From: a phage
DNA: 64,000 bases
Direction: 5' to 3' (one strand)
Assembly (NCBI GenBank): GCA_032986305.1
Contig: GCA_032986305.1_3672.1
Shown here: piece after piece, positions 17,978 to 59,229 of the stretch
Position numbering within the stretch: position 1 is the stretch's first letter
Layout of the letters: every line of letters starts with the position of its first letter
Made by a program: the position numbers and the translations under genes
Notes under the pieces: model-generated
Database searches by the model: none
Seen by the model: only the letters and a program-made list of their open reading frames with translations
Told to the model about the DNA's origin: nothing

Positions 17978-18244
17978 TTAAGCTTTTTGCTCTTCGTTTT
18001 TAACGTGGTCAGGGTGCTGGCAACCCCACCGGAGCGAGATGAATTTGCTAATAAGCTGGGGGCAGGCTACTGAAGGTGCGTATATCCACGCATACCATTC
18101 AGGAAGCGTATCATTGTACCCCATATGAATAAAAACCCCAGTCATCACTGCCATGCCTATGTTTGACCATAGCTTAGATTGGGACACTTTTGTAGGGTCA
18201 TCAGATGCTGCAACCAGTCCCCATAAAAACTGAGTTAATTTCAT
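17978..18244 (-). CDS. small predicted membrane protein (88 aa)
   Basis: Two hydrophobic segments (LWSNIGMAVMTGVFIHMGY; WYAWIYAPSVACPQLI) and a charged C-terminus. Confidence 0.4.
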   Translation of the reverse strand: MKLTQFLWGLVAASDDPTKVSQSKLWSNIGMAVMTGVFIHMGYNDTLPEWYAWIYAPSVACPQLISKFISLRWGCQHPDHVKNEEQKA

Positions 18245-18253
18245 TTACCCTCT

Positions 18254-19297
18254 TTAAGCATAAGATATGGTGATCCATTGACCGTTTACAAATTTTTGAA
18301 TAGCTCCAGTCCAATAGTCGCCCTGATACGGGTGTTTATAGGCGTAATTGCCGGAGCACATTACATGCCCAGGGTATACTCTTGATTCTCTGTAGGTGGT
18401 TCTGAAACGGTTTGCTATCCTTACATCTTCAACACCCCTACTAGGCATAGGAATAGTAAGGTTACCACTACTGTCTGCGCTACTACCATTTACCCTGCGG
18501 ACCACGTTTCTTCCACCAACTGTTGCATATTGACCTCTGGCGGTTTTATCGTTACAATCTACTCTTCCACCTATTTGAGCGCTTCCGCAGGATTGTTGTC
18601 CGTTAACAGCGGCTCTTGGTATTGTGACCGCATTGGCATTTGCAGAGGAACTTTTTGCATCGTTGCATTCAAGATTCCCTTGGATAGCCAGTCTTGCACG
18701 GTTGGCAGTTATAGCATTGAGCTTCATAGCCGAAAACACAGGCTGCCCACCAGAAGGTTGAAATCTCCAACGGAACCCGTCTATTTGGTGAGAAGGATCA
18801 TCAAGATCTGTGCCGTCAGCACCACCGATGTTGTCCATAATCCAGAAATCCATTGTCGTCTTGTCTGGAGTTATGGTGGTGTATATCGCCGCATTGTCTG
18901 TTGACGCGGATGCAAACTCGATTCTTTGAAGACCTAAAGTTTGAGTCTGGATCATTGTGTCTCCAGCCTTGTCAACATAAAGGTCATCCATTTCTTCAGG
19001 TGAGTATACATTGAGAACTTGACGTGCAGCAGCTTTGTCTGGAACGTCTGCCAGATTATTAGTGACCCTTAAGAATCTATTATCCCATCCTGGGACAACA
19101 TCTTCTGTTAAATGCTTTAACCACGCAGAAAGCATGTGAAGTTCAAAGTTAACAACTTCACATGCCACTCTTTGTGTCATATCCCAACCTTTCAATCTCT
19201 CTTCTTTTTTTGGTTGGGACTTATTCAATTCTCCCGTATTTTCAAGCACAACATCCTGATTGGCCCAAATATCAAGAGGGATAACTGGTTTAGTCAT
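18254..19297 (-). CDS. tail fiber protein, paralog A (347 aa)
   Basis: N-terminus PLDIWA and C-terminus QKFVNGQWITISYA shared with the 20312..21352 product; GDTM motif typical of fiber shafts; divergent central part. Confidence 0.6.
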   Translation of the reverse strand: MTKPVIPLDIWANQDVVLENTGELNKSQPKKEERLKGWDMTQRVACEVVNFELHMLSAWLKHLTEDVVPGWDNRFLRVTNNLADVPDKAAARQVLNVYSPEEMDDLYVDKAGDTMIQTQTLGLQRIEFASASTDNAAIYTTITPDKTTMDFWIMDNIGGADGTDLDDPSHQIDGFRWRFQPSGGQPVFSAMKLNAITANRARLAIQGNLECNDAKSSSANANAVTIPRAAVNGQQSCGSAQIGGRVDCNDKTARGQYATVGGRNVVRRVNGSSADSSGNLTIPMPSRGVEDVRIANRFRTTYRESRVYPGHVMCSGNYAYKHPYQGDYWTGAIQKFVNGQWITISYA

Positions 19298-19386
19298 CGC
19301 GTTCTCCTGAGAAAATTCCTTAGGACTATTTTAACACTTTAGAGAACAAAATGCAAGAACGGAGTCCTTTCCGTTCTGACCTTTGT

Positions 19387-19701
19387 TTACCTTTTACTAT
19401 GCTCTACAAGCATGTGCAAAATCTTTTGTACATCAGCTCGGATACCGGAGACATCTGTCCTGACATCCTGCTTAAGGTCGTTAATATCGGCCTCTAGCTT
19501 GCTTAACCGGGTCTCGATAACGGAATCAAGTTTATCTTTTGTAACCATACTGTTTTTCACTAAGATGAGGTCTTTCTCCAGTTCATCCAACCTCTTGGAA
19601 ATGCCTTTCCATTTGGTGTGCCACTGGTTGAAAGCCCATACACAGATCGGGACAACGGTACCCATGCAGATACCGTACAATGCCGCCAAATCCAACTCCA
19701 C
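19387..19701 (-). CDS. membrane-anchored coiled-coil protein (104 aa)
   Basis: N-terminal hydrophobic helix (LYGICMGTVVPICVWAF) then heptad-rich region. Confidence 0.4.
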   Translation of the reverse strand: MELDLAALYGICMGTVVPICVWAFNQWHTKWKGISKRLDELEKDLILVKNSMVTKDKLDSVIETRLSKLEADINDLKQDVRTDVSGIRADVQKILHMLVEHSKR

Positions 19702-19712
19702 AACACCTCCTC

Positions 19713-20297
19713 TTAGAGGGTAGGTCGCTCCGGGAAGAAAATGTCAGGGGCTTTAGATGTATCTATTTCAAGAAGTTTTACCCTGTACATTTTCAAATCT
19801 CTGATGTTACGTTTCTGGTCATCAGTAAGATCATATTCAAGGTCAATCATGTCTTGATAGGCACCAATTCTAGCAGTAGCCCAAGCAAGTTCTGTCTCTA
19901 TGACACCCTCTGCCTGTTGAACAAAGAATTCATTATCTGTGACAAATTCATCACCAACTAAACGCAAAGCGTCGTGGTGAAGCATAATGTTTTCTGGTAC
20001 CTCTTCTTTTTTGGCGATAACCACACGAAGACCTGGAGCAGGCCATAAGGCATCAGGTTCTTCTGTAGATGTCTTAAGAATTCCCTTCTCGTCAACAAGT
20101 AGGAAGATACAACCCGGATTTTCTTGTCGTAATGTTCGTGACTGCACATACCAATCGCCATCATCATTACGTAAAAAATACCCGGTGTATGCAGTGTAAT
20201 CCTCAACCTCTTGAGGGGTCAGCTCCTTGGTTTCCTTGTTGGCGTGGTATTCGCCAGATCCCGGTTGGTAAAGTTTAAACTCTTGAAGTATTTTCAT
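19713..20297 (-). CDS. tail fiber assembly chaperone (Tfa-like)
   Basis: C-terminal KMYRVKLLEIDTSKAPDIFFPERP resembles the Caudo_TAP signature; immediately follows a fiber gene. Confidence 0.6.
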   Translation of the reverse strand: MKILQEFKLYQPGSGEYHANKETKELTPQEVEDYTAYTGYFLRNDDGDWYVQSRTLRQENPGCIFLLVDEKGILKTSTEEPDALWPAPGLRVVIAKKEEVPENIMLHHDALRLVGDEFVTDNEFFVQQAEGVIETELAWATARIGAYQDMIDLEYDLTDDQKRNIRDLKMYRVKLLEIDTSKAPDIFFPERPTL

Positions 20298-20311
20298 GCT
20301 AGTCCTCCGAT

Positions 20312-21352
20312 CTATGCATAATTAACAGTGATCCATTGACCATTTACAAGTTTTTGTAAAGGTCCTGCCCAGTAGGTTGAACCACGCATCTCTTTTTTGT
20401 CACCGAAATGCCAGCCTGTGACAACGTAGCCGTTGCGGATGGGAGATTCAGAAACGCCGTCCACAAGTCTTGCACCGATTCTGATGTCTTGCACACCTGT
20501 CTGAGGGATAGTGATCGTTACATCACCGTTACCGTTAGCCGTCACTCCATTCACGGAGCGCACCACATTTCTGTTACCGACAACACAGTGCTGGCTTCTT
20601 ACAACCATACTGTCACAACTTGCACCACCATTAATATATACTGATCCAGCCGTCAACTGACTAGCCACATTACAGTTGGTGAATGTTGCTGTATTGCTGA
20701 TAGTAAGGTTATTGCACCTCATGTTATCGACAACTTCAACATTGCCGACCACTTTCAACAACGCACGGTTAGCCGTGATCGCGTTAAGGTACATCAAAGT
20801 GAACTCTGGATTAATATCCGGCTGAGTTGGCTGGAATCTCCAACGAAACGCATCTACTGTAGATGTACCACCATCATCAAACGACCCAATATTATCACTT
20901 AACCCGAAGTCGAGAGTTGTCTTATCTGGGCCAATAGTTGTCTCTATCCAAGCCTTATCTGTCTCGGCAGCTTTAAAGTTGATACGTTGCAAACCCAATG
21001 GGCCTGTCATTGTATCACCTGTAACTTTTACATACCTGGCGTCTGCCTCTTCCTTAGTAATAATCCCAAGGTTTCTACGGGCAACAGGAATGTTCAAAAG
21101 ATCACTCAAGTTATTATCACGTACCAGATAACGGCCTTCTTGAGCGGGGATCTGCTCGTCAGCAATGTATTTTGCCCAAGTTCCGAGCATATTGAAAATA
21201 TAGTTAAGTTCTTCACATGAGGGCTTTTGACCAAGATCCCAACCTTTTCTCCACAAATCATCAATCGGGCGTAGCCTGTTCTGTCTGTGGGTGTTAGGCA
21301 GAACCTGATCCTCCTCTGCCCAAATCTCTAATGGAAAACTAGGTTTTGACAT
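20312..21352 (-). CDS. tail fiber protein, paralog B (346 aa)
   Basis: Shares PLEIWA N-terminus, GDTMTG motif and QKLVNGQWITVNYA C-terminus with paralog A. Confidence 0.6.
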   Translation of the reverse strand: MSKPSFPLEIWAEEDQVLPNTHRQNRLRPIDDLWRKGWDLGQKPSCEELNYIFNMLGTWAKYIADEQIPAQEGRYLVRDNNLSDLLNIPVARRNLGIITKEEADARYVKVTGDTMTGPLGLQRINFKAAETDKAWIETTIGPDKTTLDFGLSDNIGSFDDGGTSTVDAFRWRFQPTQPDINPEFTLMYLNAITANRALLKVVGNVEVVDNMRCNNLTISNTATFTNCNVASQLTAGSVYINGGASCDSMVVRSQHCVVGNRNVVRSVNGVTANGNGDVTITIPQTGVQDIRIGARLVDGVSESPIRNGYVVTGWHFGDKKEMRGSTYWAGPLQKLVNGQWITVNYA

Positions 21353-25625: not shown

Positions 25626-25693
25626 GTCACTCCTCCGGTATGAAAATCTCTACAAGGTATTTTACCAAATTTTGTAACAATAGTCAATCTGAG

Positions 25694-31138: not shown

Positions 31139-31200
31139 TGTGCCTCCCGGTTAACAATTATGATAGTTATTTTACCAGATTTTAAGTTAATACGCAATAC

Positions 31201-46240: not shown

Positions 46241-46283
46241 TTTATAGCATCCTTATTAGTCATGTTGTGCACCATATTTGTGT

Positions 46284-46312
46284 ATTTTACCATGATTATG
46301 GTGCATTGTCAA
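46284..46312 (-). promoter_or_regulatory. sigma70-like promoter overlapped by an inverted repeat
   Basis: Minus strand TTGACA, 17-nt spacer, TAAAAT; the spacer and -10 are embedded in the inverted repeat tgcaccata (46268-46276) / tatggtgca (46297-46305). Confidence 0.5.
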
Positions 46313-49799: not shown

Positions 49800-49840
49800 T
49801 AATGTATTTTACCACAAAGATACATCAAAAGCAACAATTT

Positions 49841-56801: not shown

Positions 56802-57804
56802 CTCAAGCAGACAGGATTATCGAATCCTTATATTCAAAGGTGGTCGCAACACCACCTTCCGCACCTTTACGTGCTGCTGCATGTTACCATGCAGAGTAGA
56901 CTATATCACCACCCATTTCAGGGTGCTTCGCTTTTCGAGCGCCATAAGCTTGCGCCCTACTCCCTCTCGGGATAGTCGTTGAACTACATTACCAATCGTA
57001 ATTGTTTGAAATATAGGTGTAAGTCTTACGGTCTTTTATTCCTTTAACAACACTAAAACTTACTCCCCACTTCTTAGCTATTTTATTTACACACAAGACC
57101 TTATCACTAAGATCCTCGCAGATACCTATTATCTTGTGCTCACTTATCCGATTAGAGGTTGGCACTTTTCTAAAGTTAAACTCTTTAGAAATATCTGGGT
57201 ATACTGAGCCATTCTTTATACCACTTACAAGTGGTTGATTGACACCAAACATTTCACAAATGTCTTTTACCCTTGCGCCTTGCTCTAACAGCCTACATAT
57301 TTCAAGAGCAGTGGCATCATCCAGGGACCTGTATTTATTGACATAGTCCTTTTTAAGTCCCATTTCATGAGCGTGATGTGTGTTTTCCTCAGGCGTTGTC
57401 CACTCAAGGTTCCATGCGGCGTTATTCAACTTATTACCATCTAGGTGGTTTACTTGAGTTTTCACGCTGGGATTGTCATTATCAACAAAAGTCATAGCAA
57501 TCACTCTGTGAACGAGCACTTGGAACTTTTTACCGTCCTCGCACAAAGTTACCATAGCATAGCCAGTCTTTTTCTGCACATTAGGATGGAGGAATTTATT
57601 AGAATACAGACTGTAAATTCTGCCATCGTATGTAGCACAATAATGATTGTAGCCTAAAAAGCCTAAATTTTTCATTTCAAACATCTCCCTACTACAGGTT
57701 CGGAAGGGTAATTATAGCTGCTGATTGTCCGTTTAGCAATCGGATTTCCCAGCAATTAACGAAGTTATTCGACGTGCATTTCTGCACGAAGCCACTATCA
57801 TTTA
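56802..57804 (-). mobile_element. group I intron (about 1.0 kb) with HNH homing endonuclease ORF in a peripheral loop
   Basis: Minus-strand core elements: P-like AATTGCTGGGAAA (plus 57745-57757), Q-like AATCAGCAGC (57717-57726), R-like GTTCAACGACTATC (56974-56987), S-like GATATAGTC (about 56893-56905); P/Q and R/S are mutually complementary. Predicted P1: exon CCAU pairs with intron GUGG; intron ends in G. Confidence 0.7.
56989..57684 (-). CDS. HNH homing endonuclease (intron-encoded)
   Basis: QVNHLDGNKLNNAAWNLEWTTPEENTHH is an HNH motif; own RBS (GGGAG) and stop; lies between intron Q and R elements. Confidence 0.8.
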   Translation of the reverse strand: MFEMKNLGFLGYNHYCATYDGRIYSLYSNKFLHPNVQKKTGYAMVTLCEDGKKFQVLVHRVIAMTFVDNDNPSVKTQVNHLDGNKLNNAAWNLEWTTPEENTHHAHEMGLKKDYVNKYRSLDDATALEICRLLEQGARVKDICEMFGVNQPLVSGIKNGSVYPDISKEFNFRKVPTSNRISEHKIIGICEDLSDKVLCVNKIAKKWGVSFSVVKGIKDRKTYTYISNNYDW

Positions 57805-58547
57805 ATGGTTGCGCCTATAAACGAGAATGACAACGGTCTTGGCTTGATCTCCACACCCAGTCCGTTAACCGTGGTGTATTTCTCTATCAACTCTTCTTTA
57901 GAGTCTCCCCAAATAAATTCACCGTCGCGTCGGATAAAATATCTTTTCTTACCGCATTTCTCCGGATCTGGATACCCTTCATCGTCCAACCACCATCTAA
58001 CCAGTTTGGCAAGCATGTGTTCTGAATCGGGGTTACAGCTGATAACCATTCTTGATGGATACTTTGACTGAGATCGCAGACGAGACATCAGATAGTCTAT
58101 CTGCTCCCATTCGAACTGCGTTCCCTCATCGAAGCAAACCATGGTGTACTCAAGCCCTTGATGGTTAAGCTTATCTTGTACATACTCCATGTGGCAGTAT
58201 TTTACAACAGCTCCCTTTTTGCTCCTATCCCACTTGCCAGTGTTCGGATCAAACCGTGGAAAAATGAACTTATGATCCTTCTCTCTGAACTTTGGCTTAA
58301 TGTTTTCAGGCAGATCACTATAAATAGCTACTGCTTTAGGCCATAGTCCACCCTCACCTTCCAACTGTGGGGTTGTTCTTCGGAACATAACCACAGAGCT
58401 GTGGGGGTCATCAATAATTTTAAGCGGCATCAACTGCAAGAGGAACGACTTGCCAGACCCTGCGGCACCGCCGATTACCAAAATATCTGCATCATTTTCG
58501 AGGATCATCTTCTGCTTTTCAGAACACGGTCCGTAAATCTTAGACAT
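57805..58547 (-). CDS. terL: terminase large subunit, exon 1 (ATPase domain)
   Basis: Walker A VIGGAAGSGKS, Walker B MVCFDEGTQFEW; AAGGAGAG RBS; in-frame TGA at 57798-57800 lies in the intron. Joined exons give a 507-aa product. Confidence 0.8.
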
Positions 58548-58834
58548 TAACCTCTCTCCTTTGGAAAAAGTGTTCTAATATAGTCTTGCAAAATGATCAA
58601 TTTAGCTCTATCATTGCTACAAGACAGATTATTATCCCTCATAATGCCAGAGTTCACTGCATCTGGCGCACCTTTCTTCAAAGGCATAGCTTTAGCAGGT
58701 GGTTTCATGGCACCTTCCGGGGGCTTAACAATCAACCTTCCTACATCTGGAGGGTCAATCTTGTATTCTTTCTCAACACTGGTTGCACACCCACATAATA
58801 ACAAGCACGCAATAAACAGTGTAGCAACTCTCAT
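58547..58834 (-). CDS. o-spanin (Rz1-like outer membrane lipoprotein)
   Basis: Signal peptide with lipobox-like LLCGC, proline-rich mature region; start overlaps i-spanin stop. Confidence 0.6.
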   Translation of the reverse strand: MRVATLFIACLLLCGCATSVEKEYKIDPPDVGRLIVKPPEGAMKPPAKAMPLKKGAPDAVNSGIMRDNNLSCSNDRAKLIILQDYIRTLFPKERG

Positions 58835-59229
58835 CGATCCTCCTGATTGATACTCTCATTATAAATATCTATAAGCTGATCAGGAAGTGTTGACTTCTTA
58901 CCTTCAGGTGATTGGAGGTAGATAATCTGCTTTTCTCTACCTTCCCTCTCAGCCATATTTAATTTATCCTGCAGATCAGAAAGAGATTTTTCAAGGTTTT
59001 TAACCTCCTCTGCGTGGCCCATTTTAATTTTGTCGGCCTGCTTTTGTTGCTGATCAAGGATCCGTTCCCACTTTAACTCTGTTGCTGACACACCCTCTTG
59101 GTAGGCATCATTAAGCTTAGAGTTAAACCAATACACGGCCCCAAGATAAGCTGCACCTATAGCCGCTGCAAAAACTAAACCTTTTATGATCCCTCTATAC
59201 CTACTCAGCCATGTTAAACCTGAAATCAT
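58831..59229 (-). CDS. i-spanin (Rz-like inner membrane protein)
   Basis: N-terminal transmembrane helix (IKGLVFAAAIGAAYLGAVYWF) followed by coiled-coil periplasmic domain; gene overlaps o-spanin. Confidence 0.6.
   Translation of the reverse strand: MISGLTWLSRYRGIIKGLVFAAAIGAAYLGAVYWFNSKLNDAYQEGVSATELKWERILDQQQKQADKIKMGHAEEVKNLEKSLSDLQDKLNMAEREGREKQIIYLQSPEGKKSTLPDQLIDIYNESINQEDR

Follow-up and report, generated by a model that had tools for sequence, protein, structure and literature searches.

Positions 17978 to 21352 of a 64,000-nucleotide stretch of phage DNA (contig GCA_032986305.1_3672.1; "the window" hereafter means this whole stretch) hold five open reading frames (ORFs), all on the minus strand. 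The window belongs to an rV5-like Vequintavirus, and the region is the short-tail-fiber (STF) locus of an rV5-like myovirus: between 17900 and 21400 we observe 97 to 98% nucleotide identity to over 100 Vequintavirus genomes besides those of rV5, JES2013, and BP9. The five ORFs encode short tail fiber paralog 1 (STF1; 20312..21352), the tail fiber assembly protein Tfa (19713..20297), a protein of 104 residues (p104; 19387..19701), short tail fiber paralog 2 (STF2; 18254..19297), and a protein of 88 residues (p88; 17978..18244), which are orthologs of rV5 gp33, gp32, gp31, gp30, and gp29, respectively, a correspondence read from the annotation of rV5 and of the BASEL phage EmilHeitz. Gene order and sizes are the same as in the published rV5 gp29-gp33 locus (PMC3606486) and in BASEL phage Bas49 and others (PMC8594841), and we observe no structural difference between the published locus and that of the window.

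In published work gp29 and gp31 have been left as "membrane protein" or "hypothetical," and gp129 has been proposed as the rV5 holin (PMC3606486). Here, we lean toward reading p88 and p104 as a dispersed holin-type lysis module instead of fiber parts, with one Tfa serving both paralogous fibers. The lysis assignment is new solely as a computational inference, drawn from sequence and genomic context.

Two small membrane proteins and their relatives in lysis cassettes

An earlier sequence-only reading of the locus had described p88 as a two-helix membrane protein, a label that structure prediction supports, even though it is not strong on hydropathy alone. The AlphaFold2 (AF2) model, made with 71 homologs, is a hairpin with helices at residues 22-43 and 49-72 and a block-mean pLDDT of 71 to 85 over residues 21-70. 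Because lysines precede helix 1, the interhelix loop is acidic, and an arginine follows helix 2, the model fits an N-in/C-in topology. Residues 72-88 form a charged tail; homologs have longer tails, with many D, E, R, Y, and S residues and a terminal RR. Small size, a transmembrane (TM) helix, and a hydrophilic, charged C terminus are features of holins, and p88 has all of them. Its 81-residue homolog in the phi92-like phage BME3 has been flagged as a topology-II holin candidate by DeepTMHMM (PMC12210895).

Direct searches say little about the protein. A Foldseek search of the p88 model against PDB gave no match at E<=0.001, Pfam, NCBIfam, and PDB sequence searches with p88 and p104 returned nothing usable, and a homolog search starting from p88 alone retrieved close relatives only. 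A wider and divergent family emerges from profiles. Both p88 (E=2.7e-32) and seven proteins from six other loci (L047 to L052, with two in L049) match phrog_1322, at E values of 1e-10 to 3e-32, and p88 and its relatives have in common the motif S-x-x-K-x-W-S-N-x-G. In a tblastn search of 2.3 Gb, the relative from a Mu-like element (L047) reaches rV5 gp29 (E=4e-3) and further rV5-like records (E=1e-3). Matches to PF10841 (DUF2644) in distant p88 relatives range from subthreshold to significant, and one relative that itself lies in a tail module (P0044) has a match on record. The phrog_1322 match, together with the A5 and A6 profiles, is what argues for p88 belonging to a divergent DUF2644 family. 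A profile search of a large protein collection yielded 153 p88 relatives, many of which carry PF10841 and three of which are named "Holin" by UniRef or NCBI, while an exhaustive profile search places the family at 604 representatives at 50% identity.

In 9 of the 10 context classes outside the tail module, the p88-family gene abuts a verified endolysin gene, a spanin gene, or both. Within L049, the genes after a p88 relative encode a Phage_lysozyme protein (E=2.8e-39), then a second paralog, an i-spanin, and a lipobox-bearing o-spanin. In L050 and L052 the relative has a Peptidase_M15_3 endolysin on one side and a spanin pair on the other, in L051 it precedes a phrog_315 endolysin, and in the Mu-like L047 it is flanked by an M15 endolysin and by an i-spanin that has an o-spanin embedded in it. 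The order Mor, endolysin, p88 relative, spanin is seen in Ralstonia phage RS138 and in Pseudomonas phage Bise. Among the endolysins beside p88 relatives, the Peptidase_M15_3 match has E=1.1e-14, and endolysins of phrog_2649 and of the VanY/M15_4 type also occur. When we looked up the contigs that encode 10 of the relatives, 8 showed either the Mu-like run of GemA, Mor, endolysin (or a 145-residue gene in the endolysin position), p88 relative, spanin-sized gene, and small terminase, or a spanin directly downstream; the other two were P0044, in its tail module, and one relative without informative neighbors. Taken with the predicted hairpin, this context makes p88 a candidate class II-type holin.

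For p104, the sequence-only reading had proposed a membrane-anchored coiled-coil protein, and this description is borne out. Residues 5-23 form a clear N-terminal hydrophobic helix (Kyte-Doolittle mean, 1.9), and the AF2 model (pLDDT 88.6) is a helical hairpin, with helices at residues 5-49 and 55-103 and the break at the MVTKD motif conserved in the family. The N terminus is acidic and a basic cluster (H28, K30, K32, K36, and R37) follows the TM helix; an N-out/C-in protein with a cytoplasmic helical hairpin is predicted.

The best family match of p104 is phrog_5345 (E=1.1e-48), and a chain of weaker matches ties it to phrog_462. It matches phrog_15210, the family of its Phapecoctavirus counterpart, at E=1.8e-3, and that counterpart matches phrog_5345 at E=1.1e-4 and phrog_462 at E=5.7e-7. 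Members of phrog_462 head lysis cassettes: in L050, one immediately precedes the endolysin and the p88 relative, and in Pseudomonas phage TehO the phrog_462 gene overlaps a holin gene (phrog_1356) by 4 nucleotides (nt), followed by genes for a lysozyme and an Rz-like spanin. In addition, every inspected lysis cassette with a p88 relative also encodes a nonspanin protein with a single TM segment and a coiled coil. This recurrent pairing was surveyed in L047, L049 to L054, L058, L061, L062, and L070. We observe that the TM helix of the partner is N-terminal in L047, L050, Bise, and L058 and C-terminal, as in XhlA, in RS138, L061, L062, L049, L051, and L052; in TehO (L070), the phrog_462 protein of this build stands beside a different holin, and a p88-like gene is absent.

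A protein of the same build is known from phage Mu. The releasin gp25, of 99 residues, combines an N-out TM helix at residues 4-22 with a helical domain in the cytoplasm, and release of the signal-arrest-release (SAR) endolysin depends on it (PMC9239132). The features of a releasin as a protein, namely an N-terminal N-out/C-in TM helix, about 100 residues, and a cytoplasmic helical domain, are all predicted for p104, so far as the model goes. p104 and gp25 are alike in architecture and in the kind of genes that surround them; we do not claim family membership. By this analogy p104 is a candidate holin-associated, releasin-like lysis protein.

The conserved module and the dispersed lysis genes

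Membrane proteins embedded in a fiber cluster had been called unexpected in the sequence-only reading. They turn out to be a regular part of it, conserved in the module across Vequintavirinae, Stephanstirmvirinae, and the Aeromonas phage genus Plateaulakevirus. By tblastn, p88 is found in 369 phage records and p104 in 224. The small proteins occur in phages of Escherichia, Salmonella, Klebsiella, Cronobacter, Pectobacterium, Erwinia, and Enterobacter; p88 extends further, to Aeromonas phages, and relatives of p88 match an Acinetobacter phage. The two genes lie within a baseplate/fiber module in at least six genera. The module of Certrevirus CR3, Seunavirus GEC_vB_MG, and Aeromonas phage phiA009 runs wedge, bp2 (a second wedge protein), STF, Tfa, p104, a polytopic protein of about 150 residues, p88, and a large fiber. 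A scan of viral contigs with the family alignment gave 44 loci, 38 of which show this module. In the rV5-like phages themselves, the locus is flanked downstream by the lateral fibers gp28 and gp27 and upstream by gp34, two wedge proteins, and a J-like protein.

Across this range p104 follows Tfa in all lineages examined. The polytopic protein (phrog_7451; five to six hydrophobic segments; 6774-7232 in L003, 6312-6785 in L004, and 5439-5879 in L007) is encoded between the p104 and p88 homologs in Certrevirus, Seunavirus, Mydovirus, and Aeromonas phages, and in Seunavirus its gene is overlapped by p104 by 4 nt. The polytopic gene was found in 107 records, none of them rV5-like, and is also absent from the phi92 and phAPEC8 groups; neither a homolog nor a remnant of it was found in the window. 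Vequintavirus is the exception to the common order, with STF2 where other genera have the polytopic gene (p104-STF2-p88). One 136-kb viral contig (L036, 5690-6243) has the p104 and p88 genes adjacent and 14 nt apart, with one fiber and no polytopic gene, an order that may be intermediate between the ancestral and the Vequintavirus ones. In the phi92-like and phAPEC8-like phages (Stephanstirmvirinae), p88 is placed immediately ahead of the wedge gene, with the counterpart of p104 still found after Tfa. Just before the p88 homolog of two such loci (L005, 5696-6004; L008, 4696-5004; Phapecoctavirus and phi92-like), we also observe an ORF of 102 residues whose matches to many tail-spike families (e.g., phrog_18484, E=1.1e-45) cover just the N-terminal 90 residues of those families; judged by these matches, it would be either a free-standing spike-anchor domain or a gene fragment.

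Between p104 and STF2 the minus strand carries two putative transcription signals. A terminator-like hairpin (19356..19377; 8- to 9-bp stem, then a T-rich tail) stands directly after the p104 stop and before the STF2 start, and the RNA of 19340-19390 folds at -17.8 kcal/mol (z=-4.0), with 0 of 200 shuffles as stable. It is followed by a promoter-like site (19328..19356; TTGCAT, 17 nt, TG-n-TAAAAT) located 30 nt upstream of the STF2 ATG. The sequence TGTTAAAATA at 19336-19327 differs at one position from the rV5 late-gene motif TggTAaAAtA (PMC3606486), of which a perfect copy lies 33 nt upstream of the wedge gene ATG. With up to one mismatch, the motif TGGTAAAATA occurs 16 times in the window against 5.4 expected, 14 of the sites being on the minus strand (for example 25658-25667, 31168-31177, 46283-46292, and 49805-49814), and the aligned sites have a common TTG.. 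element about 17 nt upstream. These sites resemble sigma-70-type promoters with an extended -10 element. Because a hairpin and then a putative late promoter precede STF2, this gene and p88 probably form a separate late transcription unit, and p88 lies in the late structural block behind a putative site that matches the rV5 late-gene motif.

The other lysis genes of the phage are found elsewhere. A complete spanin pair occupies 58547-59229 of the minus strand (i-spanin, 58831-59229; o-spanin, 58547-58834, with lipobox LLLCGC); the two genes overlap by 4 nt and adjoin the gene for the large terminase (TerL), directly upstream of a TerL exon at 57798-58547 (minus strand), which is followed by an HNH-like ORF at 56989-57684. 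A TerL that is split or contains an intron has been reported for rV5, and the exon and the HNH-like ORF are in line with it. Spanins beside TerL have been described in rV5, PVP-SE1, and CB7 (PMC7344957). Since the true spanin pair is there, the lysis genes of this phage are dispersed and p104 is not needed as an i-spanin. Eight endolysin queries found no endolysin in the window; the rV5 endolysin gene lies beyond it, about 50 kb from p104 in rV5 coordinates. Its product, gp89, is soluble and lambda-R-like and has no SAR domain, and a canonical holin is therefore needed. A holin has not been established in rV5, and gp129 was guessed from TM count alone (PMC3606486). We observe that gp129 has two strong TM helices and lies among early/middle small genes without a lysis neighbor.

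The short tail fibers and their chaperone

The fiber pair is known biology, already described by Kropinski 2013 (PMC3606486) and Maffei 2021 (PMC8594841). In the former, gp30 and gp33 were reported to be 42.3% identical and were likened to T4 gp12 by HHpred, recognition of two lipopolysaccharide (LPS) chemotypes was suggested for them, and gp30, gp32, and gp33 were listed among the virion proteins of rV5. The latter reports fibers without allelic variation and a common requirement for LPS outer-core glucose, which LL12 and the BASEL phages need (PMC7229145, PMC8594841).

Our alignment agrees with a paralogous pair, as the sequence-only reading had proposed: STF1 and STF2 are 43% identical, with 59% positives, over their full length (BLASTP, E=5e-96), and both match phrog_4465 full length (E=1.3e-171 and E=2e-163, respectively). 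The N-terminal P[LE][DE]IWA, the GDTM motif, and the C-terminal QK[FL]VNGQWIT..YA noted in that reading are indeed present in both. Its claim that the fibers differ in the central region is contradicted, since identity peaks (60 to 64%) in alignment columns 101-150 and 176-200; divergence is concentrated in columns 26-100, 201-250, and 301-325. Over their last 20 residues the fibers are 70% identical.

Both paralogs match the N terminus of phrog_12846, and residues 1-108 of STF1 align to residues 1-111 of the phiTE short tail fiber (PDB 9cuy; E=1.5e-19). In the phiTE structure, residues 3-92 of the fiber were modeled and the joint lies on the wedge monomers (PMC11972413); in phi92, the ortholog gp147 is fiber III, present in 6 copies and attached beneath the wedge protein gp145 (PMC13450770). 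We observe that both paralogs keep this docking domain, that phi92 has six short fibers per virion, and that docking in phi92 and phiTE is on the baseplate wedge. The phi92 and phiTE structures have one wedge site per sector, and the two paralogs could be mounted by mixed occupancy, as heterotrimers, or at a second site.

At the other end of the fiber, STF1 residues 286-343 match the tip of the Mu fiber gpS (5yvq; E=1.9e-6), and its last 57 residues are 61% identical to the STF of BME3. The single STF of Seunavirus scores 274 bits against STF1 and 226 bits against STF2. Because STF1 is nearer to the fibers of other genera, we read it as the ancestral copy and STF2 as its diverged duplicate; STF1 also holds the ancestral position, adjoining the Tfa gene directly downstream of it, whereas STF2 is followed by p88. 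A third fiber copy was looked for in the window and not found. Two receptor specificities, proposed before in PMC3606486 and again in the sequence-only reading, appear plausible from the alignment, in that the C-terminal head diverges and STF1 is nearer to the phi92-type tip.

Only the first fiber is followed by a Tfa, as had been claimed: the product of 19713..20297 matches PF02413 (Caudo_TAP) over residues 121-192 with 45.8 bits (cutoff 22.1; E=8.4e-12) and phrog_136 at E=2.1e-36, it is 31% identical to the Tfa of BME3, and tblastn with this Tfa finds no second one in the 64-kb window. Because the C-termini of the fibers are conserved, one Tfa plausibly acts on both and probably folds both. 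Both Mu-gpS-type short fibers keep the same N-terminal wedge-docking domain and the same extreme C terminus, the part on which Tfa-type chaperones act. The STF2 duplicate would have replaced the polytopic membrane-protein gene, with its own promoter-like site, and the diverged head loops of STF2 would probably confer the second LPS-core specificity proposed earlier.

Finally, GenBank holds 16 to 21 records labeled "Campylobacter phage" (MG0656xx; host C. jejuni) that are about 97% identical to the rV5-like phage of the window, and other MG0656xx "Campylobacter phage" records match phi92-like phages. The host labels of these records look wrong, or the records look like contaminants.

A lysis role for the small proteins, its rivals, and known systems

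In the reading we lean toward, p88 would accumulate late in the inner membrane as an N-in/C-in helical hairpin and, at a set time, its lesions would let the soluble endolysin reach the cell wall. p104, tethered by its N-out helix, would show its helical hairpin to the cytoplasm, where both p88 tails lie, and would tune either the triggering of the holin or the release of the endolysin, in the manner of an antiholin or of a Mu gp25-type releasin; the spanins would then complete lysis. p88 and p104 would thus be the membrane half of a lysis cassette left behind fiber genes, with the endolysin and the spanins now elsewhere. Of the three guesses made in the sequence-only reading (chaperone, holin-like, or superinfection exclusion), the holin-like one is where the evidence points.

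Several observations weigh against this reading. No endolysin or spanin gene lies beside p88 or p104 in the window phage, so the adjacency to such genes that is typical of holins is not seen for p88, whose neighbors in the window are fiber genes. The hydropathy of p88 is weak (maximum, 1.05; Kyte-Doolittle, 19-residue window), and p88 and 12 close homologs do not match PF10841 even at E<=10. Holin activity of DUF2644/phrog_1322 proteins is itself putative, a full-text literature search for "DUF2644" retrieved no paper, and one context class of the p88 family (L048 and L071) is without lysis neighbors. As for p104, the releasin mechanism requires a SAR endolysin, and rV5 gp89 is not one; releasins are encoded within five genes downstream of the endolysin and act with a SAR partner (types I and II), neither of which applies to p104. 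DUF2730 (PF10805), which has been reported solely in transposable phages (PMC9239132), is the family against which p104 was tried. Its Pfam model gives no match to p104, the p104 homolog of ABPH49 aligns over its full length but below threshold (E=0.0078; 16.7 bits, cutoff 24.9), and hhalign gives a probability of 25% (P=7.8e-4). Among 3078 ORFs, the top 13 nonself matches of the DUF2730 profile are all p104 proteins, at 9 to 13 bits only. As the ABPH49, hhalign, and profile tests were all below threshold, we rejected membership of p104 in DUF2730; the similarity could be just coiled-coil composition. In addition, the shared Tfa is argued solely from the conserved fiber C-termini, and p88 and p104 stay linked to STF and Tfa across genera, which a fiber-related role would also explain.

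Such a role is the main rival. p88 and p104 would be membrane-bound assembly factors for the short fibers or the baseplate, holding Tfa-fiber complexes or wedges at the inner membrane, and this would explain the strict synteny with wedge, STF, Tfa, and lateral-fiber genes in at least six genera, including those of Aeromonas phages, as well as the constant place of p104 after Tfa and its 4-nt overlap with the next gene in Seunavirus. The cytoplasmic coiled coil of p104 would also face the compartment where fibers fold. What this role does not explain is the relatives in lysis cassettes: those of p88 in Mu-like phages and other contigs adjoin endolysin and spanin genes, not fiber genes, and those of p104 in phrog_462 are coupled to holin genes. 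The searches made gave no similarity to known fiber chaperones, and T4 shows that a holin gene may stand beside fiber-chaperone genes for no other reason than that both are late. We consider an assembly role unlikely. A narrower form, with p88 as the STF2 chaperone, was rejected because p88 occurs in genera with a single fiber. A combined proposal, to which we give a small chance, is that the fiber module carries the missing holin system (gp29 as two-helix holin and gp31 as releasin-like protein, with the polytopic protein as a third subunit in most genera) and that its fiber linkage couples tail and fiber completion to lysis timing; for example, the cytoplasmic coiled coil of gp31 might sense free Tfa or fiber and hold the holin in check.

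Superinfection exclusion or immunity, with p88 and p104 acting like Cor, Llp, or T4 Imm, has little chance of being right and was the weakly supported member of the earlier guesses. Small inner-membrane proteins beside receptor-binding genes would be in line with it, as with cor and llp, and the category of phrog_1322 in PHROGs is "moron, auxiliary metabolic gene and host takeover." However, the proteins are conserved at 23 to 55% identity across phages of Escherichia, Salmonella, Klebsiella, Cronobacter, Pectobacterium, Erwinia, Acinetobacter, and Aeromonas, whose receptors differ (flagella for the Certrevirus phages phiTE and CR3, and, as is thought, LPS for other Vequintavirinae). Their genes lie in late structural operons, not early ones, and form a core tail module that is not patchy; p88 and p104 have neither a lipobox nor a lipoprotein signal, and their relatives are core parts of lysis cassettes. 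We give very little chance to minor virion proteins, that is, membrane-active tail-tip or ejection factors missed by proteomics. Small hydrophobic proteins do easily escape mass spectrometry, and some GenBank homologs are labeled "structural protein" or "virion structural protein," but these records carry no evidence for the label. Mass spectrometry of CB7 virions detected the flanking fiber and wedge proteins and not CB7_32-35, which are Tfa and three small proteins (PMC7344957); we equate CB7_33-35 with the three small membrane proteins by gene order. Neither are p88 and p104 among the proteins listed for rV5 virions (PMC3606486), and none of the components listed and modeled in the phi92 structure is a counterpart of them (PMC13450770). 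Hardly any chance is left for p104 as an i-spanin-like (Rz-type) protein for outer-membrane disruption. Its N-terminal TM helix and coiled coil would suit that role, and the Phapecoctavirus counterpart weakly matches phrog_739, "Rz-like spanin" (E=1.2e-3). Yet the charges of p104 predict N-out/C-in, the opposite of Rz, no lipobox ORF is adjacent to or embedded in it, and the phage has the complete i-/o-spanin pair next to TerL (PMC7344957). We rejected p104 as an i-spanin on topology and on this real spanin pair.

Few broad-host-range coliphages are isolated as commonly as the rV5-like phages, which are used in phage cocktails, and their holin has never been identified. If p88 and p104 do form a holin-type lysis module, gp29 and gp31 would be two concrete candidate genes for lysis timing, reached through families that stand in lysis cassettes elsewhere. 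This would also open a first functional approach to DUF2644/phrog_1322, a family that numbers about 600 clusters at 50% identity and is common in Mu-like prophages, and the case of p104 hints that releasin-like proteins exist outside transposable phages.

Known systems resemble the locus in each of its parts. The fibers are like Mu gpS/gpU, P2 gpH/gpG, and those of phiTE (9cuy) and phi92 (gp147) in their docking N terminus, gpS-like tip, and Caudo_TAP gene directly downstream. They differ in that the fiber gene is duplicated here and the chaperone gene single and, compared with Mu, in that there is no invertible segment and both fiber copies would be expressed together. The DUF2644/phrog_1322 proteins of Mu-like prophages, in the holin position of the order Mor, endolysin, DUF2644 gene, spanin, are like p88 in the motif S-H-T-K-x-W-S-N-x-G, a length of 70 to 90 residues, the two-helix hairpin, and the hydrophilic C-terminal tail; unlike them, p88 does not reach the Pfam model and is encoded in a tail-fiber module, far from the endolysin and the spanins. 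For p104 the nearest likeness is to Mu gp25 and to phrog_462 of phage 73-like siphoviruses: all have about 85 to 104 residues, an N-terminal TM helix predicted as N-out/C-in, basic residues where membrane and cytoplasm meet, and a cytoplasmic domain made of helices, and all are late genes tied to holin or endolysin genes. p104 is set apart from gp25 by a partner endolysin that is soluble, not SAR, and by a gene that is not within five genes of it. For the arrangement as a whole there is a precedent in T4, whose holin gene t lies immediately downstream of fiber genes 37 and 38. The T protein has no similarity in sequence or topology to p88 or p104, being one TM helix with a large periplasmic domain, but t would be like them in encoding a late membrane protein of lysis timing that ends a fiber/chaperone cluster, with the endolysin gene far off.

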